A stretch of 64,000 bases of DNA from an uncultured Bacteroidales bacterium (GCA_964388575.1 CAYMAZ010000008.1:1821-65820), one strand, 5' to 3'; shown: positions 10,381 through 20,296, counted from the stretch's first letter. Numbers and translations are program-made. Notes: generated by a model from the sequence alone, not told the origin.

Positions 10381-10430
10381 CTGAGTTGTTATTGATAAGA
10401 TTACTCAATTATTCATTAATAACAATTACA

Positions 10431-11612
10431 ATGAAACAAAAACTATTTTCTGCGATTGTTTACCTGATTTTGTTGAACAGCCTGAATGCACATTCACAAA
10501 ACGGCGACAGCTCAAAGACATGCGTCAGGCCTGTTCAGTTGACATTTGTTTATCCACTTGGTACCAACGGCGTTGAATCAGGGAAAATCACCAACAACTT
10601 TTCTTTTAATATATTTGCAGGGCACAATGGAGGTCTGAATGGCGCTGAAATCGGAGGTTTTTCAAATACCATCAAACATACAATGACTGGTTTTCAGATT
10701 GCGGGATTCAGCAATGTTGTACTTGGAGAGGTTTCGGGCTGCCAGATCAGCGGATTCAGCAATTTCGTAAAACAAAACGTAAAAGGATGCCAGATTGCCG
10801 GTTTTTCAAATGTGACAGGAGATTCATCAAAAGTCTCCCAGTTTTCGGGTTTTTCAAATGTGATCAACGGATCAAATAACGGGATTCAAATTTCAGGCTT
10901 TTCCAATGTAACTTCTGATGATTATGAAGGTGCACAGATTTGCGGATTCAGCAATGTTTCGAGAGGAACCCACAGAGGGTGCCAGATTGCAGGGTTTTCA
11001 AATGTTTCCACAGGCAACCTTGAAGGATTGCAACTGAGCGGATTCATTAATGTTGCAGGGAAACTGAAAGGTGCTCAGATCGGCTTTATCAATGTCTGTG
11101 ATACCGTTGAAAACGGAATTCCCTTCGGTTTTATCAGTATCGTAACCAAAGGGTACAAAGCCATTGATCTGCATTATGATGAATCGCATTTTTTTAATAT
11201 CGGTATTCATACAGGAGCAGACCAGTTTTATAACATATTCACAGCAGGTCTCAGAATCAAATCTGAAAATTTCTTCTGGTCATACGGCTATGGTGTCGGA
11301 TCAAAATTCAGGATGACAGACAGATTGAACACAAATCTTGAGTTAACTTCAACTTACATTTCTCCTGACAAATGGTATCACAAAAGTTTCAATATGATTT
11401 GCAGGTTGCAACTGCTTGGGTCGTATAGACTGATAAATCATGTACATCTGTTTGGTGGAGTCAGTGCCAATGCTTTCATTACAAACAGAAAAACGGATGA
11501 AGGCATCCTGACCGACAGCGGACTTGTTTCATGGTCATTTTACAGAACAGACACGGGAAATTTTCTGCATAAATTCTATCCTGGATTCAGTGCCGGTATT
11601 CGCATATTTTAA
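10431..11612 (+). CDS. Paralogous GFSN-repeat outer-membrane protein (no STN or CarboxypepD_reg domain)
   Basis: Signal peptide MKQKLFSAIVYLILLNSLNAHSQ, ten 16-residue repeats, and a C-terminal alternating-hydrophobic segment ending ...GFSAGIRIF. Start moved from TTG 10386 to ATG 10431. Confidence 0.75.
   Translation: MKQKLFSAIVYLILLNSLNAHSQNGDSSKTCVRPVQLTFVYPLGTNGVESGKITNNFSFNIFAGHNGGLNGAEIGGFSNTIKHTMTGFQIAGFSNVVLGEVSGCQISGFSNFVKQNVKGCQIAGFSNVTGDSSKVSQFSGFSNVINGSNNGIQISGFSNVTSDDYEGAQICGFSNVSRGTHRGCQIAGFSNVSTGNLEGLQLSGFINVAGKLKGAQIGFINVCDTVENGIPFGFISIVTKGYKAIDLHYDESHFFNIGIHTGADQFYNIFTAGLRIKSENFFWSYGYGVGSKFRMTDRLNTNLELTSTYISPDKWYHKSFNMICRLQLLGSYRLINHVHLFGGVSANAFITNRKTDEGILTDSGLVSWSFYRTDTGNFLHKFYPGFSAGIRIF
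10641..11144 (+). repeat. In-frame 48-nt (16-residue) tandem coding repeat array, about 10 units
   Basis: Units: AGFSNVVLGEVSGCQI / SGFSNFVKQNVKGCQI / AGFSNVTGDSSKVSQF / SGFSNVINGSNNGIQI / SGFSNVTSDDYEGAQI / CGFSNVSRGTHRGCQI / AGFSNVSTGNLEGLQL / SGFINVAGKLKGAQI ... Confidence 0.85.
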
Positions 11613-11640: not shown

Positions 11641-12372
11641 ATGAAAACAAATCTCATGAAATCAATTGCAATTTTTGCACTCATCATTATCACAACAATG
11701 CTTGTCACATCCTGCCAAAAGGAGTTCGGGAAAGGCCCTGTTGTGAATGTAATCAGAACTGTTGACAATTTTTCAAAAATTAAAGTTGAGAATTCTGCAA
11801 CAGTGCGTATTAAGAAAGGAGAATTTCAAAAAGTTGAAGTGTCAGATTATGAAAATCTAATCGGTTATTTATCGGTTGAAACAATTAATAATGAGTTGAT
11901 TATCAAAACAAAGCCTTACAATGTCATTCTGAAAAATTCACTGGCAACAGTAACCATCACTACTCCGGATGTTCTGACAGCAATTAAAATCAGCGGGAGC
12001 AGTGATGTGTCAGTTACAGATACCATGTCTACCTTACAAAATGTTCAAATCAGTGGAAGCGGATCATTTGAATCAAAATACAATGCATACACTTCATATA
12101 TTTCAAGTGAGATTTCCGGATCAGGAGATATCAGTATGAACGGTGTAAACGATAATGTTTATGCAAAAATTTCCGGATCTGGAAATATCAATTTCGGAGG
12201 ACTCGTATCTCAGCACGCCGTGTGTAATATCAGCGGCAGTGGTGACATTACAGTCAATGCACAGCAAACTCTCAGTGTCACTATCAGCGGCAGTGGAAAT
12301 GTGTATTACTTCGGCAATCCATCAATTAACACCAATATTTCAGGAAGCGGAAAAATTATCAGATTGAACTGA
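11641..12372 (+). CDS. DUF2807 (putative autotransporter-adhesin head GIN domain) lipoprotein
   Basis: Lipobox LVTSC after a hydrophobic leader. Repeated (I/V)SGSG(D/N)(I/V) rungs (ISGSSDV, ISGSGSF, ISGSGDI, ISGSGNI, ISGSGDI, ISGSGNV, ISGSGKI), typical of DUF2807 beta-helices. Confidence 0.75.
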   Translation: MKTNLMKSIAIFALIIITTMLVTSCQKEFGKGPVVNVIRTVDNFSKIKVENSATVRIKKGEFQKVEVSDYENLIGYLSVETINNELIIKTKPYNVILKNSLATVTITTPDVLTAIKISGSSDVSVTDTMSTLQNVQISGSGSFESKYNAYTSYISSEISGSGDISMNGVNDNVYAKISGSGNINFGGLVSQHAVCNISGSGDITVNAQQTLSVTISGSGNVYYFGNPSINTNISGSGKIIRLN

Positions 12373-12547
12373 AATTATATTACATGATAACTCAACTATA
12401 TAATACCTCATTATCTTAAAATAGGCTTTGAAAAGATTAGTAAATCTTAAAATCTGTCAAATATTCTGTAATACTTATTTAGAACGATACATTATCGTAC
12501 GCAAAAACTTTGTACTTTTATAATTCATAAACTAAATCTGTGTATCG

Positions 12548-13321
12548 ATGAGGCTGGCTATCATATCAGACATTCACGAAGATGTTGTTAATTTAACAAA
12601 AGCATTACGAATGATTGAAAAAGCAAATTGTGATGAAATTATTTGTCTGGGAGATATTGTCGGATTTAGTGTTCCGTATTATAAGTATATTGAAACACGC
12701 AATGCCAACCGATGTATCAGTTTGATTTCAGAAAATGTAAAATATGTCGTTGCGGGAAACCATGATCATTATGCCATCAGGAAGCTGCCAACAATTGTTC
12801 CCGGATTCAACTTACCTGCAGACTGGTACGAATTGCCTTTCTATAAACGCAAAGAGCTCGCTGCAAATCAGTTATGGCTATTTGAAGACAACGAACTTTC
12901 CGCTTTACTTGATGATCAATCCAAAGAATATATCAACAATCTTCCTGAAATGACAACAATTCAAGCCGAAAATCTCAAAATTCTACTGACACATTTTTTA
13001 AGCCCTGATATTACTGGTATCACAAAAAACTTCATTTACACATCAGGCGGATTCTCATCACATCATGAATTAATGATCGGGCACGAAGCCAGTTTATCAC
13101 TTTTTGGACATACTCATCAAAACGGTATGTATATCTTTGACTGCGGAAATGGAAATCCAATCATCTCAAAAAAAACAAAAATCAGTGCATCTCTATGCAG
13201 CATTGGTATTCCTGCAATTGCATCTTCAAACGGATTCTCAGGTTTTGCAATTCTTGACACAGAAAAATGTTCGATAGAAGTCAGATCAATTAGACCTGTG
13301 TTTAATTTAATATCCGGATAA
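12548..13321 (+). CDS. Metallophosphoesterase (calcineurin-like)
   Basis: Ordered motifs SDIH, GDIVG, GNHD, LLTH, GHTH. The stop lies 2 nt before the next start. Confidence 0.85.
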   Translation: MRLAIISDIHEDVVNLTKALRMIEKANCDEIICLGDIVGFSVPYYKYIETRNANRCISLISENVKYVVAGNHDHYAIRKLPTIVPGFNLPADWYELPFYKRKELAANQLWLFEDNELSALLDDQSKEYINNLPEMTTIQAENLKILLTHFLSPDITGITKNFIYTSGGFSSHHELMIGHEASLSLFGHTHQNGMYIFDCGNGNPIISKKTKISASLCSIGIPAIASSNGFSGFAILDTEKCSIEVRSIRPVFNLISG

Positions 13322-13323
13322 TT

Positions 13324-16224
13324 ATGAATAAAAAAACAGGATCAATGTTGAAGTTTTTTAATAAAATTATACTCCCTTCATTTCTGGCAGTATTACTTTT
13401 TATTCTAACATTATTTTTTATTGTAATTCCGGTATTTGAAAATGCAATGATGGACCGGAAACGGGAAATGATTCAGGAGCTTACAAACTCAGCATCAAGT
13501 ATTCTGGAAAAATATTATAAAGACGAGGTTGAAGGAATGATTTCCAAAGAAGATGCACAGCAAACTGCCATCTCACGCATTCAATATCTTCGTTACGGTG
13601 ATGAAAACAAAGATTATTTCTGGATCACCGATATGCATCCCAATATGATTATGCATCCATATGTTCCTGAACTAAACGGCACTGATCTGAGTGATTATGA
13701 AGATTCACACGGGAAAAAATTGTTTGTTGAATTTGTCAGTATTGTTAAAGAACAGGGACAGGGATTTGTTGACTATATGTGGCAATGGAAAGATGACTCA
13801 ACACATGTTGTTCCAAAACTTTCATATGTCAAAAAATTTGAACCCTGGGGATGGATTATCGGAACTGGCATTTATATTGAAGATGTCAGAAAAGAAATTT
13901 CTGCACTCTCATCAAAGTTAATGTACATAAGCATTATCATTGCAGCTATTACTGCATTGTTACTTACATTCATTTCATTTCAGTCATTGCGCATTGAACG
14001 AAAAAGACAATCGGCTGAAAGTAATCTGAAAGAATCACGAGAAAAATATCGATCATTAGTTGAAGCCTCAACTGAAGGACTTGTGATGATCAGTGACAAC
14101 AGGATCATTTTTGCAAATCCGGTGTTTCTGAAATTATCAGGATTGGCATGGGATGAACTTGAATCGATGAACTGGCAAGATATTTTCATTTTACCAGTAC
14201 AGTTGAATGAGAAACTTACCCATGGCAATCATGATATTGAGACCGAACCGTTTGAGACTGACATCTCTCTTCCTGTCAATCGTAAAATTCATGCACTCAT
14301 TCATTTAACACCCATATTATTTTACGGTAAGAAGGCAGTCATCTTTTCAATAAAAGATATCAGCACCGATATTATTATGAAACGCGAGTTGTTTGAAAGT
14401 CGTGAGCGGTTCAAGACATTGATGGATAAATTGAATGTTGGTATTTTCAGAACAACAATGGATGCCCGTGGTCGTTTTGTTGAAGCCAATCATACAGCTC
14501 TGCAGCTTCTAGGATATAACGATAATGAGCATTTTAAAGAAAAATATATCCTTGATCTGTTTGCTGAAAAAGAAGATAAAAAACAATTCAGAAATGATTT
14601 GTTAAATAAGGGATTCATCAGAAACAAGGTCATCAAATTAAAAAAAACTGACGGGGAAATTGCCCATATGATGGTTTCTTTGGCTGTAATTACAGGTGAA
14701 GACGGGCAGGCAACATATTGTGATGGAATCATTGAACCATTTTCATCCAAAATAACAGCCAAACAGTTTACTCAAAAGATAATCAACACAAATGAACTGA
14801 GAACTCTAATTCATTCAATCGGAGTCCATACATTTATCAAACCACTTCAAACAATCAGGCTGGACCAACCGATTGGAGAGGCTACACTTTTAATGGATGA
14901 TTTACAAAACAGAGTTCTTTTTGTTTCTGATAATCAAAGTCGGATTCTTGGTTTTGTAACTGATACTGAGATTGCAACTGGTCTGACCACATCGGGATTG
15001 AAAAAAAATTCACCCGTTTTTAACATCATGAGATCTCCGCTTATTTCGGTAAAAGAAAACACTTCTGTAATTACTGCAAAATCAATACTAAGAAAAAGAT
15101 CATATCCTGCTTTAACAGTTTCAGGTTATGATGAAAACATTGTTGGGTACATACACACAAACGACCTTAATGCTATTGATGAAATCCGTATGAGTGAGAT
15201 TTTTGAAGAAATCGGAAAGGCATTAAGTATAGAAAATCTTACTCAATTACGTTTTGAATTTGTAACCATCATTGCCAAACTAACAGAAAACAAATTACCT
15301 TCAAATGTAATACTGCAACTTCTTTCCGAAGTGTTTGATTCCATAACTTCAAGATTGTTTGATTTGGCTTATGTTGAACTGGGCACCCCTCCTGTTGAAT
15401 TTGCTTTTGTTGTAATGGGGAGTGAAGGCAGACTTGAACAAACACTGAAAACAGATCAGGATAATGCAATGATATATCGGGATACTGAAACAGATATGGA
15501 AAGCCATTCCAAATACTTTTTAAATCTTGGAACCTGGATTAATAACGCTCTTCATTACATCGGCTACGCACTTTGCAAAGGTGAAAATATGTCAATGAAT
15601 CCTCAATGGAACAAACCTTTAAGCGATTGGAAGAACTATTTTTACAAATGGATTAATAGTGGACAACCTAAAGATTTACTTGATATCAATATTTTCTTTG
15701 ATCTTCGATTTTGTTATGGAACTCCTGCAATTGTTGAAGAGCTTGAATCACATATTCTTTCTGAAAGCAAATCCAATACTGCATTTCTGCATCATCTTGC
15801 AAAAAATGCGATGCATTTTAAACCATCAGTAAATCTTTTTGGAAATGTAATAGTTGAATCTGCAGGCGCACCTGCAGATACACTTCGAATTAAAGACAAT
15901 ATTGCAGCCATTGTAAATTTTACAAGAATTTATGCCTTACAACAGGGAATAACAAATAAAAACACAATACTCAGGTTAAGAGAGCTCAACATTAAGGGAG
16001 TTTTAAACGATTCGGAATTAACAGAAACCGTTAGAGTATTTGAATATCTTACTTCAATCCGAATTCAACATCAGGCATCGCTAATTCTTGAGAATAAAGA
16101 AGCTGACAACATTATTCATGTCAAGACACTTACTGGCTTTGAGCAGACAATGATTAAAAAATCATTATCAATAATAAATGACATGTTAAGCAAGCTCAAT
16201 TTTGACTTTAAACTAAATTTATAA
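13324..16224 (+). CDS. Membrane sensor: single Cache - TM - PAS - PAS - CBS pair - DUF294 putative nucleotidyltransferase + DUF294_C
   Basis: 966 aa. TM1, then a Cache-like ectodomain (DYFWITDMHPNMIMHPY...GFVDYMWQWKD...WGWIIGTGIYIEDV), then TM2. Two PAS-like blocks (RSLVEASTEGLVMISDNRIIFANP; FKTLMDKLNVGIFRTTMDARGRFVEAN), a CBS pair, and the DUF294 signature FAFVVMGSEGRLEQTLKTDQDNAMIY. Confidence 0.8.
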   Translation: MNKKTGSMLKFFNKIILPSFLAVLLFILTLFFIVIPVFENAMMDRKREMIQELTNSASSILEKYYKDEVEGMISKEDAQQTAISRIQYLRYGDENKDYFWITDMHPNMIMHPYVPELNGTDLSDYEDSHGKKLFVEFVSIVKEQGQGFVDYMWQWKDDSTHVVPKLSYVKKFEPWGWIIGTGIYIEDVRKEISALSSKLMYISIIIAAITALLLTFISFQSLRIERKRQSAESNLKESREKYRSLVEASTEGLVMISDNRIIFANPVFLKLSGLAWDELESMNWQDIFILPVQLNEKLTHGNHDIETEPFETDISLPVNRKIHALIHLTPILFYGKKAVIFSIKDISTDIIMKRELFESRERFKTLMDKLNVGIFRTTMDARGRFVEANHTALQLLGYNDNEHFKEKYILDLFAEKEDKKQFRNDLLNKGFIRNKVIKLKKTDGEIAHMMVSLAVITGEDGQATYCDGIIEPFSSKITAKQFTQKIINTNELRTLIHSIGVHTFIKPLQTIRLDQPIGEATLLMDDLQNRVLFVSDNQSRILGFVTDTEIATGLTTSGLKKNSPVFNIMRSPLISVKENTSVITAKSILRKRSYPALTVSGYDENIVGYIHTNDLNAIDEIRMSEIFEEIGKALSIENLTQLRFEFVTIIAKLTENKLPSNVILQLLSEVFDSITSRLFDLAYVELGTPPVEFAFVVMGSEGRLEQTLKTDQDNAMIYRDTETDMESHSKYFLNLGTWINNALHYIGYALCKGENMSMNPQWNKPLSDWKNYFYKWINSGQPKDLLDINIFFDLRFCYGTPAIVEELESHILSESKSNTAFLHHLAKNAMHFKPSVNLFGNVIVESAGAPADTLRIKDNIAAIVNFTRIYALQQGITNKNTILRLRELNIKGVLNDSELTETVRVFEYLTSIRIQHQASLILENKEADNIIHVKTLTGFEQTMIKKSLSIINDMLSKLNFDFKLNL

Positions 16225-16252
16225 TCAAAAAAATCCCTAATAAAAGTAAACT

Positions 16253-17023
16253 CTATTTGTCTTCCTTTCTGCTTTTTGGAAAAAAATATCTCATTACACT
16301 TTGTTTTTTCTGCTTTTTCCCGAACAATATATTAAGATTATTTTCTGCAGCTAAATTATCAGGCCAAAGTTGCAAAGCATGAAAATATTGTTTGGCTGCA
16401 TTCTCAAAGTCATTACGATGTCTGAATATAATACCCAGATTTGTATAGCTTACAGATAATCTTCTTTTTGTTTCAAACTGAGCATCAGCAATTTGCTTTG
16501 TTCTCTTGCGAATATAGTTGTTTAAATTTGACTTGTTCTTAAACATCTGATCATCTTTTTGAAAGTCTGAGGACACTAATGCTTGAACTTCATTTTTCGG
16601 TTTGTCTTCCCATTCTTCAAGCCATTTGGAATACAAATCAATACTTTTTAACACATTCATCTCTGCCAGCTGAAATAATGAGTCTTTTATGATTTGATCT
16701 GAATTATTCGAATCCAAAGCCATTGACAAATAAGCAGCAGCTCTGTTATTGTATAAAACCCCTACTTCGTAAGATTCCTTGTAATGATCAATGTCAGCAT
16801 ATATTTCTTCAATTGAATCCATCAGAAGAAATATATTTTCATAATCCGAATGCTCTGCCAGTGAATTGTATTTTTCATACATTTCATGTGCCCGGACAAC
16901 ACGGGGATCAACTGATTTATTTTCAGCATTATAGTACCAACTTGCAACAAGTACTGCACAAATAACAAGAATCGTCATTATTAAAATAAGTACTCTTGTT
17001 TGTTTAATTTTCTGAAATTTCAT
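16253..17023 (-). CDS. Membrane-anchored TPR-repeat protein
   Basis: N-terminal TM helix (VLILIMTILVICAVLVASWYY). TPR-like helices (GVLYNNRAAAYLSMA; YTNLGIIFRHRNDFENAAKQYFHALQLWPDN). Start is 2 nt after the symporter stop. Confidence 0.6.
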   Translation of the reverse strand: MKFQKIKQTRVLILIMTILVICAVLVASWYYNAENKSVDPRVVRAHEMYEKYNSLAEHSDYENIFLLMDSIEEIYADIDHYKESYEVGVLYNNRAAAYLSMALDSNNSDQIIKDSLFQLAEMNVLKSIDLYSKWLEEWEDKPKNEVQALVSSDFQKDDQMFKNKSNLNNYIRKRTKQIADAQFETKRRLSVSYTNLGIIFRHRNDFENAAKQYFHALQLWPDNLAAENNLNILFGKKQKKQSVMRYFFPKSRKEDK

Positions 17024-17025
17024 TC

Positions 17026-18696
17026 TTATTCATGAACCTGTTCAACAAGGAATTTCCTTATTTCAACAGGAGTCGGTTTTGTGATTTTTGAAACAAAAAT
17101 ATTTGTAATTATCGCCAGTGGAGCTCCAATCCATGCAAAGTACCATGCTCCCAACCAATAATTGACAAAATCCTGAAGGGGTAATGTGGCACCAACCTTA
17201 CCAGCAATAAAATAGGTTAGGGAAATAATTGTAACAACACTACCGGCAATAAGGCCCGCAAGAGCACCCTGTTTATTCGAACCGCTCCACCATATTCCGA
17301 GAAGAAATAATGGAAATATTGTACAACCGGCCATTGAAAATGCAAGAGCTACCAGTTCTGCGATAAGTGCCAATTTAGCCAATGCAATTACAGCAACAAT
17401 AACGGCCATAAGAATGGTCCCTAATCTTGCAACAAGAAGTTGTCTTCTTGCACTCGCCTCAGGATTGATTACCTTAACATAAAGATCATGTGAAAATGCT
17501 GAAGCACCAGCCACCAGCAAACCTGAAACAGTGGAAAAAGCAGCAGAGACAGCTCCAGCAGCTAGCAAGCCTACAATAAGAGGATTCACATTGCCCAACT
17601 GTGCTGTATAAACGACAATAGCATCCTTAGCCAGTGTCCCAACTTCAGGATGAGCAGCAAGCATCTTTCCAAAAGCAGCATAAACAGGAGCAGTCCAATA
17701 TAATATACAAATAAAGAACAATCCCCAAACCACTGACCATCTTGCATCTCTTGAATTAGGAACAACATAAAACCTCTGAATAACGTGAGGCAACCCAGCT
17801 GTCCCAATCATCAGAGAAAACACAATAGCCATCCATTGAAAAAAAGTTCCTCCGGAAGAAAGAGCCCACGGCATGGCATATTCCGGTGAGGCAACAATTG
17901 AAAATTGATTTCCGTAATGATTGAATAGTTCTTTCGTTTCACTTATAGGAACTCCAGTAACAATATCAGAAACAACTGAACCATATCCAATTGGAGGTAA
18001 TAACCAGAAATAATCAAATTTAAAAAGCAGAATAAAAAGCGGCACTAAAAAGGAAACAATAATAACAATATACTGAATCTGCATATTTTTGGTCACTCCG
18101 AGCATTCCTGAAATGAGTGTATAAAGTAAAACAACACCTCCTCCTATAAATACAGCCCAAACATAATCTATTCCCATAATCCATTTGAACATTATACCAA
18201 TGCCTCCAAACTGACCCACACAATATGAAATTGAAATAATAATTGTAACAACGGCAGCAGCAATTCTTAATGTTTTAGAATAAAATCTGTCTCCAATAAA
18301 ATCTGAAGCAGTATATTTTCCATATTTTCTAATCTGACCGGCCATTAGAATCAGCAGAAGGACATACCCTCCTGTCCAACCGACAACATAAGCCAGTCCA
18401 TGATATCCTGCCCCAAACATCAATGCTGCCATGCCGAGAAAACTGGCAGCACTCATCCAGTTGGAAGCAATTGCCATCCCCGAACCAACCCTTGAAATAC
18501 TTCTTCCTGCAGCATAGTAATCAGAAGTATCCTTCGCACGGAATACAATGCCGACAAGTACAAAAACAACCAGAATACTAATTAAAATAATTGCAGGACC
18601 GACTTTAAATCCACCTTCAAGCTCAGTTGCTTTGGCAGATGCAAATAACGAAAATGTTGAAATAATCATTATTAGTGAAAGTAATATCTTTTTCAT
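17026..18696 (-). CDS. Sodium:solute symporter (SSF; large subunit of the DUF4212-associated type)
   Basis: 556 aa, about 13-14 hydrophobic helices, SSF-like N-terminal motif DYYAAGRS, immediately downstream of a DUF4212-like gene. Confidence 0.85.
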   Translation of the reverse strand: MKKILLSLIMIISTFSLFASAKATELEGGFKVGPAIILISILVVFVLVGIVFRAKDTSDYYAAGRSISRVGSGMAIASNWMSAASFLGMAALMFGAGYHGLAYVVGWTGGYVLLLILMAGQIRKYGKYTASDFIGDRFYSKTLRIAAAVVTIIISISYCVGQFGGIGIMFKWIMGIDYVWAVFIGGGVVLLYTLISGMLGVTKNMQIQYIVIIVSFLVPLFILLFKFDYFWLLPPIGYGSVVSDIVTGVPISETKELFNHYGNQFSIVASPEYAMPWALSSGGTFFQWMAIVFSLMIGTAGLPHVIQRFYVVPNSRDARWSVVWGLFFICILYWTAPVYAAFGKMLAAHPEVGTLAKDAIVVYTAQLGNVNPLIVGLLAAGAVSAAFSTVSGLLVAGASAFSHDLYVKVINPEASARRQLLVARLGTILMAVIVAVIALAKLALIAELVALAFSMAGCTIFPLFLLGIWWSGSNKQGALAGLIAGSVVTIISLTYFIAGKVGATLPLQDFVNYWLGAWYFAWIGAPLAIITNIFVSKITKPTPVEIRKFLVEQVHE

Positions 18697-18724
18697 ATTG
18701 AATTATTGTTTTAATGAATTAAAC

Positions 18725-19480
18725 TTAAAATTGCCTGGCTGCAGTTTCTTTTCTTTCAATTTTGTCAGTAATAATACAGTATATCCAACATAATCCTATA
18801 AAAAGGATTAGCAGAAACACAGCTGAATAAAAATAATGAAAAGGAAATCCCAGAAATTTTGTATCTGTCAACACTGAGCGATTGTGAATCAGATAAAATG
18901 GCATCCCTTTTTCTGTAATTTTTTTATTTTCCTCACTAAACACTTCATAATTTTCGGAACTTAAAGAAAACGGAATTATAAGTTTACGTGCATCTGTTGC
19001 ATCAATGTCCAACATTCCGCACACCTTTTCTTCCAAAACTTTCTTGGATTCAATATAAGCAGGGTCCAATAATCCACTCCCTTCCAATTTTTGCTTTTCA
19101 AAGTTTACAACATCCAAATAAAGTTTTTCCTTTTCATCACCTGCCAGTTGAAACAATGCCCATGTAAATCCGTTTGACATTGCAGCCTCATACTCAGGTT
19201 TAATGTATACTTTCCCAAGAACATACAACAAAGAGCTGGCAAAATTCTTCAATTGAGCTTCATCGGCAGTTTCTGACTTTACATTTTCCCATACTGAGAT
19301 AAATGTGTTGTAGGCAGGTTCAGGCACAGGTTTCTGTATCACCCTAAGTAATATCTGAAAGCCAAATACGGCTATTGCCCATATGAGGATCAGCCATATA
19401 ATCATATTCCTGTTTTTCAATGCTCGGGGACTAACCGGTTTGAAAAAACTAACATGATAGTCGTTTTGATTTGTGTCCAT
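18725..19480 (-). CDS. DUF4212-like putative solute:sodium symporter small subunit with a large insertion
   Basis: First helix (NRNMIIWLILIWAIAVFGFQILL) and C-terminal FLGFPFHYFYSAVFLLILFIGLCWIYCIITDKIE resemble the two conserved halves of DUF4212, separated by about 165 residues. Start set to ATG 19480; TTG 19504 lies inside the -7 box. Confidence 0.6.
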   Translation of the reverse strand: MDTNQNDYHVSFFKPVSPRALKNRNMIIWLILIWAIAVFGFQILLRVIQKPVPEPAYNTFISVWENVKSETADEAQLKNFASSLLYVLGKVYIKPEYEAAMSNGFTWALFQLAGDEKEKLYLDVVNFEKQKLEGSGLLDPAYIESKKVLEEKVCGMLDIDATDARKLIIPFSLSSENYEVFSEENKKITEKGMPFYLIHNRSVLTDTKFLGFPFHYFYSAVFLLILFIGLCWIYCIITDKIERKETAARQF

Positions 19481-19501
19481 AGGTTTTGGTTGATTAAGCA
19501 A

Positions 19502-19509
19502 CAAAAGTA
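19502..19509 (-). promoter_or_regulatory. Putative -7 box (TACTTTTG) for the symporter operon
   Basis: Exact TAnnTTTG match 21 nt upstream of ATG 19480. Confidence 0.45.
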
Positions 19510-19606
19510 AAAAATTCGTTCAATGAATATTGAATTTAAATTTTGTGATATAACATTGTTTAAAAACAACTTTATTTCAGAAAATGATTTACTTTTACAA
19601 TAAAAA

Positions 19607-20296
19607 ATGAAATTTAGAAAAGATATTCAGTGCAATGAATGTTTGCTAAAATGTGATATATATCTGACATTACGGAAAAATGGCAATGATTTTTCCAATG
19701 TCAATCCTCTGCATGTCTCCTATCGCAGACATGAAATCATCTGCAAGCAGGGAAATGAGGTCACACATGCCATTTATCTGGTCAAGGGAACTGCCAAGCT
19801 CTATATTGAAGGACTAAACAACCGGAACATCATCCTGTATATCATGAAGCCCCACAGCTACATTGGGTTACTTTCATTTTTTGAGACCCCAACGTATTCT
19901 TATTCAGTTACTGCACTGGAAGATAGTGAGATATGTATGATTGATCTGAATTACATAAAAAAACTTTATGTGGAGAACCACGATTTTCTCATCAAACTCA
20001 ATGAGGCATTTGGCAAATCGGTTGCATCCATCATGCATAAAATTATCACGCTGAATCAGAAAAACATAAGAGGCCGGTTTGCAGACAGCCTGCTCTATTT
20101 ATCGAAATTACAAAACAACCTGAGGTTTGAAATGTTACTTACGAGGCGGGAACTTGGAGAATTGTCGGCAATTTCGGAAGAAAATACAGTCAGACTTCTT
20201 ACAGAACTTAAAAGAGAAGGAATTATTGAAGTTCAAGGGAGACAAATTACAATACTTGACGACAAACTGTTAAAGAAAATCAGCGAGGTTGGATAG
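19607..20296 (+). CDS. Crp/Fnr-family transcriptional regulator with an FNR-like cysteine pattern
   Basis: cNMP-binding-like beta-roll followed by a C-terminal helix-turn-helix (RRELGELSAISEENTVRLLTELKREGII). Cysteines are at positions 9, 12, 16 and 110. Confidence 0.85.
   Translation: MKFRKDIQCNECLLKCDIYLTLRKNGNDFSNVNPLHVSYRRHEIICKQGNEVTHAIYLVKGTAKLYIEGLNNRNIILYIMKPHSYIGLLSFFETPTYSYSVTALEDSEICMIDLNYIKKLYVENHDFLIKLNEAFGKSVASIMHKIITLNQKNIRGRFADSLLYLSKLQNNLRFEMLLTRRELGELSAISEENTVRLLTELKREGIIEVQGRQITILDDKLLKKISEVG

Follow-up and report, generated by a model that had tools for sequence, protein, structure and literature searches.

In this 64,000-nucleotide (nt) stretch of DNA from an uncultured Bacteroidales bacterium (the window, numbered throughout from its first letter), we analysed a locus of two adjoining plus-strand genes, one for a metallophosphoesterase, which we call MPEa (12548-13321; 257 amino acids (aa); matches to Metallophos and Metallophos_2), and one for a transmembrane sensor-nucleotidyltransferase (13324-16224; 966 aa; from the open reading frame (ORF) listing and Pfam/NCBIfam). 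The locus is a transmembrane variant of the COG2905/DUF294 module, which is found alongside symporters for monocarboxylates. The MPEa gene ends with the stop codon TAA at 13319-13321, followed by 'tt' and the ATG at 13324, and from this intergenic gap of 2 nt we infer that the two genes are translationally coupled. The nearest relatives of the 966-aa protein found by homology searches came from uncultured Bacteroidales. The G+C content of the window is about 35-40%, and the locus shows no compositional break.

From its N terminus, the 966-aa protein consists of a transmembrane (TM) helix, an sCache_2 domain, a second TM helix, two PAS domains, a CBS pair, DUF294 and DUF294_C. TM helix 1 spans approximately residues 11-38 (13354-13437, plus strand, as for all parts of this protein; Kyte-Doolittle peak 3.08) and TM helix 2 approximately residues 199-219 (13918-13980; hydropathy peak 2.57). 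Since these two helices flank the Cache domain (residues 42-193; 13447-13902; PF17200, E-value (E) 2.7e-44, 151.3 bits, cut-off 25), the latter is placed outside the cytoplasm. The two cytoplasmic PAS domains follow (residues 236-350 and 361-465; 14029-14718; TIGR00229 at 3.7e-19), and TIGR00229, Pfam PAS, PAS_8 and PAS_9 each matched two stretches of the protein. In the region of the CBS pair (about residues 503-620; 14830-15183), Pfam scored a single CBS unit (residues 567-615; 8.9e-11, 42.4 bits, cut-off 24), and the pair was deduced because alignments with IMPDH and PrdR cover residues 503-633. The C-terminal part comprises the DUF294 core, a pol-beta-type nucleotidyltransferase (residues 648-782; 15265-15669; PF03445, 2.8e-41, 141.1 bits, gathering cut-off 21), and the helical 'substrate-binding' domain DUF294_C (residues 820-962; 15781-16209; PF10335, 6.7e-31, 107.5 bits, gathering cut-off 22.5). 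Pfam found no N-terminal cNMP_binding domain in the protein, and TM-sCache_2-TM-PAS-PAS stands in that place. In the prediction of a different gene caller, translation begins at Met8 and the protein (P0001) has 959 aa. The ORFs, the Pfam/NCBIfam matches and the hydropathy profile bear out the preliminary description of this locus, which had reported a 966-aa Cache-PAS-CBS-DUF294 protein starting 2 nt after a phosphoesterase gene.

We compared the Cache domain with solved acetate- and propionate-binding sCache structures, which it matched at 1e-36 to 1e-39 overall, including Adeh_3718 (PDB 4k08) at 3e-39 and PscD-SD (5g4y/5g4z) at 2e-36. The sensor region of the histidine kinase MctS matched at 9e-28. 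The propionate bound by PscD contacts Tyr90, His103, Tyr143 and Lys156 and lies sandwiched between Trp92 and Trp145 (PMC5062169). Residues Y98, W100, H111, Y151, W153 and K165 of the protein in the window align with PscD Y90, W92, H103, Y143, W145 and K156, and all six positions were invariant in an alignment of 40 homologs (38-67% identity). By homology, the domain is strongly predicted to be a sensor of C2/C3 monocarboxylates, and the earlier suggestion of a Cache type that binds small carboxylates was supported by the structure matches as well as by the six PscD contacts. Like the sCache_2 chemoreceptors PscD (P. syringae) and Adeh_3718 (Anaeromyxobacter) and the MctS sensor, it has about 150 residues between two TM helices, whereas its output is a nucleotidyltransferase and theirs is a methyl-accepting chemotaxis protein signalling domain or a histidine kinase.

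The nucleotidyltransferase signature quoted in the preliminary description, GSEGRLEQTLKTDQDNAMIY, corresponds to residues 699-718. G699, S700, R703, E705, D711, Q712 and D713 were invariant in the 40 homologs, as were D793 and R795 further downstream, and the pol-beta catalytic signature G-S...D-x-D with a downstream acidic residue is present. When the DUF294 module was compared with the PDB by sequence, no relative was found even at E up to 10, so we turned to a fold search, in which an AlphaFold2 model of residues 625-966 (predicted local distance difference test score (pLDDT) 88.7; predicted TM-score (pTM) 0.88) was compared with the PDB by Foldseek. The best matches were GlnE and DrrA (E 7e-9 to 3e-7, TM-score 0.64-0.69), represented by the GlnE N-terminal domain (1v4a; E 7e-9, TM-score 0.69), the GlnE adenylylation domain (3k7d; TM-score 0.65-0.69) and the DrrA-Rab8a complex (6yx5; TM-score 0.64), and their identity to the module was only 13-15%. 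The next tier consisted of aminoglycoside nucleotidyltransferases at a TM-score of about 0.33, and neither cGAS nor any CD-NTase was among the 50 matches listed. No Pfam/NCBIfam match to GlnE, GlnD_UR_UTase, HD or ACT was found in the 966-aa protein. The model indicates that the DUF294 module has the fold of a GlnE/DrrA-type protein AMPylase and lies outside the GlnE/GlnD sequence families. This placement agrees with the earlier classification of DUF294_C in the clan of the GlnD/GlnE C-terminal domains (PMC3710099), and the likeness of the fold to GlnE and DrrA lends support to the GlnD-like analogy drawn in the preliminary description. A defence-system reading was rejected: Hailong HalB and the MNT/HEPN nucleotidyltransferases were only weak fold matches (full-length TM-score ≤0.25), and the gene context is metabolic.

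MPEa matched Metallophos at 3.1e-13 (51 bits, cut-off 21.5) and Metallophos_2 at 6.5e-14. The five calcineurin-like metal-binding motifs (DxH / GD / GNH[DE] / H / GHxH) are complete, and the corresponding residues D8-x-H10, G35-D36, G70-N71-H72-D73, H149 and G187-H188-x-H190 were invariant in 34 homologs. With these motifs the active site of MPEa is intact, as is that of the nucleotidyltransferase. The structures closest to its AlphaFold2 model (pLDDT 94) were 3rqz, the diadenosine tetraphosphate (Ap4A) hydrolase/phosphodiesterase SapH, MJ0936 and lambda phosphatase. The MPEa family is small, with 447 matches; all three distant homologs that were located lay directly upstream of a Cache-DUF294 gene, and a DUF294 gene stood immediately downstream of the MPEa homolog in 54 of 67 informative metagenomic loci. 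The family is not an exclusive partner of DUF294, since about 13 of the 67 metagenomic homologs were found elsewhere, several of them in clusters with ATP-grasp or class-II aminoacyl-tRNA-synthetase (aaRS)-like genes and others, among those examined, in contexts of unrelated kinds. We also observed a paralogous MPEa-type clade (36-40% identity; L120, L123, L127, L146, L112) that lies away from DUF294, together with ATP-grasp and class-II aaRS-like genes. Enzymes of the aaRS-like kind make acyl-adenylates and ATP-grasp ligases make acyl-phosphates, and the Metallophos proteins of these clusters may act on activated-acyl compounds. In two further loci, cytosolic PAS-CBS-DUF294 proteins of about 690 aa, without Cache or TM segments (L144:1566-3644 and L126:2402-3583), follow an MPEa-type gene, with an overlap of 4 nt between the two genes in L144. 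It follows that DUF294 proteins can be paired with Metallophos without having a Cache input.

A homolog search over 5.8 billion proteins gave 2940 matches at E ≤1e-10, and the full architecture was present in all of the best 120 of these 2940 matches. At least 80 full-length loci (35-66% identity) were found among the GTDB species representatives, distributed over Bacteroidota, Ignavibacteriota, Acidobacteriota (Aminicenantes), Myxococcota, Gemmatimonadota, Sumerlaeota, Calditrichota, NC10 and other phyla. Full-length homologs overall were 35-67% identical to the protein in the window, and NCBI names them 'DUF294 nucleotidyltransferase-like domain-containing protein' or 'cache domain-containing protein'. 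The architecture differs from the classical form of the family, yet it is not rare.

To survey the partners of the nucleotidyltransferase, we called ORFs in 83 non-redundant loci, clustered them by BLAST and annotated the cluster representatives with Pfam and NCBIfam. The results showed a metal-dependent hydrolase adjoining the nucleotidyltransferase, or fused to it, in about 68 of the 83 loci, across many phyla. The partner was MPEa in 23 loci, directly upstream on the same strand, with gaps mostly between -4 and about +31 nt. It was a second Metallophos subfamily, MPEb, in 20 loci and an AP_endonuc_2 TIM-barrel protein in 14 loci, both directly downstream and convergent. N-terminal fusions carried a PHP domain in four loci and a DnaQ/RNase_T domain in two, and the remaining five loci showed various arrangements (one third Metallophos type, one separate PHP gene, and three partners displaced by an insertion sequence (IS) element or extra ORFs). 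RNase_T was seen as an N-terminal fusion in the relatives P0098, L049 and L056. The fused PHP and DnaQ domains precede TM helix 1, which is the place corresponding to the upstream Metallophos gene in the window. Among the 1072 flanking ORFs of these loci, every one of the 62 members of the three partner clusters lay within 1.2 kb of the nucleotidyltransferase gene. MPEa and MPEb (L007 type) were considered as possible orthologs, but only N-terminal motifs are common to both, and we treated them as separate subfamilies. The partner type tracked the clades of the nucleotidyltransferase, indicating that the partner has been replaced several times within one orthologous family.

We then compared the partners with characterised enzymes. 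The best named relative of the AP_endonuc_2 partner was CbiR, a cobamide-remodelling phosphodiesterase (7e-15), with Nfo at 1e-7, and the fused PHP domain came closest to two enzymes, 3',5'-nucleoside bisphosphate phosphatase and RNase RNM. Judged by sequence similarity, the relatives of most partners appear to be metal-dependent phosphodiester hydrolases that release a 5'-nucleotide, AP_endonuc_2 being the least certain. Such hydrolysis would strip a nucleoside monophosphate (NMP) from a protein hydroxyl, and it would break down a product that is a nucleotide or an oligonucleotide just as well. Because up to five hydrolase folds interchange, with phosphodiesterase activity as their presumed common property, the likely role of the partner is narrowed to hydrolysing a nucleotide-containing phosphodiester. 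A pyrophosphatase role for the partner was rejected by inference, as incompatible with exonuclease partners of the DnaQ type. In one Bacteroidetes locus (L029:12880-14127, minus strand), a convergent amidohydrolase-family gene shares 4 nt with the nucleotidyltransferase gene at the 3' end of the latter, and its product may be another metal-dependent hydrolase partner.

The two genes of the window converge on a minus-strand symporter operon, in the order DUF4212, sodium:solute symporter (SSF) and, last, a TPR gene. The DUF4212 small symporter subunit (18725-19480, or 19504; PF13937, 4.6e-11) matched TIGR03647 at its C-terminal TM segment with 33.8 bits (cut-off 26.05). The large subunit of the VC_2705 family (17026-18696; PF00474, 2.7e-54) lies immediately downstream of it, 28 nt apart, and matched TIGR03648 with 502.1 bits (cut-off 320.75), the next best matches being ActP and MctC. 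The third gene encodes a membrane-anchored TPR protein (16253-17023; 256 aa; TPR_1, 4.8e-07) with one N-terminal TM segment by hydropathy. The preliminary description had correctly recognised the convergent DUF4212/sodium:solute symporter operon and had not mentioned this third gene. The TPR protein is 42% identical to the product of the gene at the same position after SSF in a Cytophagales locus (L095:3701-4465), the gene is present also in L001, L010 and L075, and the protein has the appearance of an accessory component conserved with this type of symporter. The DUF4212 subunit itself is unusual in length: it has about 250 aa, and its TM segments at 31-57 and 217-250 are separated by an inserted stretch of about 160 aa. 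A long form of 235-270 aa recurs in L001, L004, L008, L094 and L095, compared with 85-88 aa for the proteobacterial form. The positive residues before the first TM segment suggest that the insertion faces the periplasm. Divergent from the symporter operon, a gene for a Crp/Fnr-family regulator lies on the plus strand (19607-20296; cNMP_binding, 2.5e-17; HTH_Crp_2, 5.8e-12).

The linkage with a symporter is conserved, as is that with the phosphoesterase. Neither of the findings that the preliminary description named as refuting it, a missing DUF294 match or a lack of conserved synteny with these genes, was obtained. An SSF gene was found within 5 kb in 59 of the 83 loci, and in 47 of the 54 loci that extended at least 3 kb on both flanks, with either DUF485 (ActP-like) or DUF4212 (VC_2705-like) as the small subunit. 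In two Cytophagales-type loci, the genes form a single co-directional cluster, in the order DUF4212, SSF, TPR-like, a protein of about 450 aa, MPEa and nucleotidyltransferase. A Crp-family gene lay within 5 kb in 30 of the 83 loci, typically in the order nucleotidyltransferase, Metallophos and Crp, followed by divergent DUF485 and SSF. We also noted a signal-peptide protein of about 420 aa without a Pfam match (cluster c2, e.g. L023:8658-9920), encoded after the SSF gene in 33 of the 83 loci. This protein resembles an outer-membrane beta-barrel and is possibly a porin for carboxylates.

We compared the locus with the classical COG2905 module, examples of which are P. aeruginosa PA3232-PA3235, the Paracoccus acs cluster, Shewanella Sama_1525 and P. 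stutzeri Psest_0349. The proteobacterial classical homologs have the order cNMP_binding-CBS-DUF294-DUF294_C, are about 600 aa long and adjoin an RNase_T exonuclease gene, in the contexts DUF485-ActP (P. aeruginosa), acs-DUF4212-SSF (Paracoccus) and DUF4212-SSF (Skermanella). The proteobacterial pattern given in the preliminary description, with an exonuclease and an acetate-type symporter, was thus seen, and acs was present in one case. The CBS-DUF294-DUF294_C core of the protein in the window aligns with the classical proteins over 91-98% of the query at 22-31% identity, with E down to 6e-62, and both forms have an adjacent hydrolase and a monocarboxylate SSF symporter with a small subunit. 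The input differs, being cytosolic cNMP-binding in the classical form and TM-sCache_2-TM-PAS-PAS here. The hydrolase differs as well: a DnaQ/RNase_T exonuclease stands in the classical loci, whereas Metallophos stands here and MPEb, AP_endonuc_2 or fused PHP/DnaQ in relatives. The window also adds the Crp-family gene, the TPR gene and the large DUF4212 insertion. In the published work, the DUF4212/SSF genes were important on D,L-lactate or D-alanine and were cofit with a nearby COG2905 gene, and Price et al. speculated that symporter expression needs COG2905 (10.1101/072470). The P. aeruginosa PA3232-PA3235 cluster was about 16-fold up during growth on propionate (PMC9765439).

The second comparison was with the nucleotidylylation switches built on GlnE, GlnD and Legionella DrrA (SidM). 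Like the DUF294 module, these proteins carry a helical domain of one and the same clan behind a pol-beta nucleotidyltransferase core. They also share the logic proposed here, namely a switch in which nucleotidylylation is reversible and a distinct activity takes the nucleotide off again. Such removing activities are the HD domain of GlnD, the AR domain of GlnE and, for DrrA, the enzyme SidD. The window's system differs from them in its extracytoplasmic sensor input and in that the proposed removing enzyme is a separate and interchangeable metallo-hydrolase.

Based on these comparisons, we propose that the Cache protein is a carboxylate-sensing protein nucleotidylyltransferase of the GlnE/DrrA type, with MPEa as its eraser and the symporter as its regulated output, a reading to which we give somewhat less than an even chance. 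The periplasmic sCache_2 domain would bind a C2/C3 monocarboxylate, the presumed ligand being acetate, propionate, pyruvate or lactate, and the signal would pass through TM helix 2 and the two PAS domains to the CBS pair, which probably integrates adenine-nucleotide status. The C-terminal nucleotidyltransferase would then move an NMP from a nucleoside triphosphate onto a hydroxyl of a putative target protein. The target would control, in one direction or the other, how active the neighbouring Na+/monocarboxylate symporter (DUF4212 + SSF + TPR) is or how strongly it is expressed, and the co-transcribed MPEa would cleave the X-O-P-O5'-nucleoside bond, free the 5'-NMP and reset the switch. The idea of reversible nucleotidylylation, already contained in the preliminary description, has been strengthened, because the Cache contacts, the GlnE/DrrA-like fold, the partner linkage and the symporter linkage all point to it.

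Several observations weigh against this proposal. Likeness to the fold of GlnE and DrrA is no proof of a protein acceptor, and no candidate target is conserved in every locus, the Crp gene being found in just 30 of the 83. In one locus with a PHP fusion, the nearest 7 kb contain no symporter. The AP_endonuc_2 partner scored alike against sugar epimerases (1e-12 to 1e-14) and against the phosphodiesterases CbiR and Nfo. A Bacteroidales/Marinilabiliales clade (L002, L013, L014, L017, L018), in which the order is nucleotidyltransferase, Crp, DUF485 and SSF, lacks any esterase partner, indicating that the partner is dispensable in some lineages. CBS was often unscored by Pfam in this clade (P0033, which is L013, and P0040, which is L002, have no precomputed CBS match; nor do P0027, P0036, P0039 and P0049, whose loci were not mapped), and partner loss and CBS decay may be linked. 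The searchable literature yielded no biochemical data on any DUF294/COG2905 protein; its content on the family was confined to the cofitness remark of Price et al., the P. aeruginosa expression data and the HEPN-clan classification. Finally, several partner families (DnaQ, RNase AM-like PHP and the SapH-like Ap4A hydrolase) are known chiefly as nucleases or nucleotide hydrolases and would suit a nucleotide or nucleic-acid product equally well.

This last point leads to the alternatives in which the product is not a modified protein. DUF294 might respond to external carboxylate by making a diffusible product (a dinucleoside polyphosphate, an oligonucleotide or a cyclic species) that the esterase degrades and that cyclic nucleoside monophosphate (cNMP)-binding proteins read, through the neighbouring Crp protein here and the fused cNMP domain in proteobacteria. 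Such a nucleotide signal would account for the character of the partners, which are directed to nucleotides or nucleic acids (DnaQ/DEDDh, PHP near bisphosphate phosphatase/RNase RNM, and MPEa near the SapH Ap4A hydrolase and ApaH-like enzymes), for the Crp-family neighbour described above, which would be the candidate reader, and for the cNMP_binding domain of the classical family members. We nevertheless consider it unlikely: the fold is clearly nearer to GlnE/DrrA (TM-score 0.64-0.69) than to polymerase-type or aminoglycoside nucleotidyltransferases (TM-score ≤0.35), cGAS/CD-NTase enzymes are missing from the 50 listed matches, many loci have no cNMP-binding protein, and such a product is not known for the DUF294 family. 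The same partners could also be read as trimming enzymes, since DnaQ/RNase_T, RNase AM-like PHP and Nfo-like proteins act on nucleic-acid ends, and the nucleotidyltransferase would then tail RNA 3' ends, of the symporter mRNA or of a small RNA, in a post-transcriptional control of the symporter that would fit the speculation of Price et al. that symporter expression requires COG2905 (10.1101/072470). RNA tailing is improbable in our judgement, as no CCA-adding enzyme or poly(A) polymerase was among the fold matches listed, the sole terminal uridylyltransferase listed (MEAT1, 3hj1) aligned poorly (TM-score 0.18), the protein has no RNA-binding domain, Rfam found nothing in the window, and the fold of MPEa is nearer to small-molecule and protein phosphoesterases than to Mre11-type nucleases.

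Two other alternatives concern the relation between the two enzymes. If the esterase were a regulated effector or target, bound or modified by the sensor-nucleotidyltransferase and providing the real output through its own substrate, tight adjacency and N-terminal fusion would be equally expected, as for any enzyme-regulator complex. Five unrelated folds would then need identical regulation, and their apparent common feature is metal-dependent phosphate-ester hydrolysis and no common regulatory surface, so that we see little likelihood in an esterase effector. The nucleotidyltransferase module might also be a catalytically silent ligand-binding or scaffold domain, in a neighbourhood that reflects co-regulation only, and the DUF294 family is indeed without demonstrated activity. 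A silent domain is hard to reconcile with the invariance of G-S...D-x-D, D793 and R795 in the alignment of 40 homologs, with the invariant metal-site residues of MPEa and with the repeated replacement and fusion of partners, which argue for a functional requirement, and we regard it as very improbable.

A sigma-70 and terminator scan of 12300-19700 gave fewer matches than shuffled sequence, Bacteroidota-type promoters being outside the scope of the tool, and an Rfam scan of the whole window gave zero matches; there is on these grounds no evidence of a riboswitch or leader at the locus. Directly upstream of the locus, a plus-strand gene for a secreted 408-aa protein of repeated 'GFSN(V)' units without a Pfam match (10386-11612) is followed by a gene for a DUF2807 (adhesin-head-like) protein (11641-12372, plus strand), which is also found upstream in L097 and L098. 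This pair seems unrelated to the nucleotidyltransferase module. The protein at 10386-11612 was tested as a possible cluster c2 barrel and does not belong to c2, a cluster with no member in the window.

The module as a kind is already known from genome context and fitness data, and its architecture will not surprise a specialist in domain architectures. In the searchable literature we found no description of the Cache/PAS-fused transmembrane variant, of the placement of DUF294 with GlnE/DrrA, or of a hydrolase partner that has repeatedly been replaced and fused. DUF294/COG2905 is a large and widespread family with a published genetic link to carboxylate uptake. To what is known of the cytosolic form, the Cache-fused variant adds a predicted ligand class (C2/C3 monocarboxylates), the assignment of a GlnE/DrrA-type output and the natural experiment of partner swapping, and it makes the function of DUF294 directly testable by ligand, enzyme pair and phenotype. 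The broader claim, that external short-chain carboxylates gate a reversible protein nucleotidylylation, with an interchangeable metal-dependent phosphodiesterase as eraser and the symporter under its control, is one we advance tentatively, as possible and rather doubtful. If true, it would constitute a new kind of one-component transmembrane signalling, with a new output class for transmembrane receptors beside phosphorylation, methylation and cyclic-nucleotide synthesis, and it would give a function to the whole DUF294/COG2905 family. Acetate, propionate and lactate are central metabolites of gut and sediment communities, and the system would then show how their uptake is tuned in many anaerobe-rich lineages, Bacteroidota and Ignavibacteriota among them.

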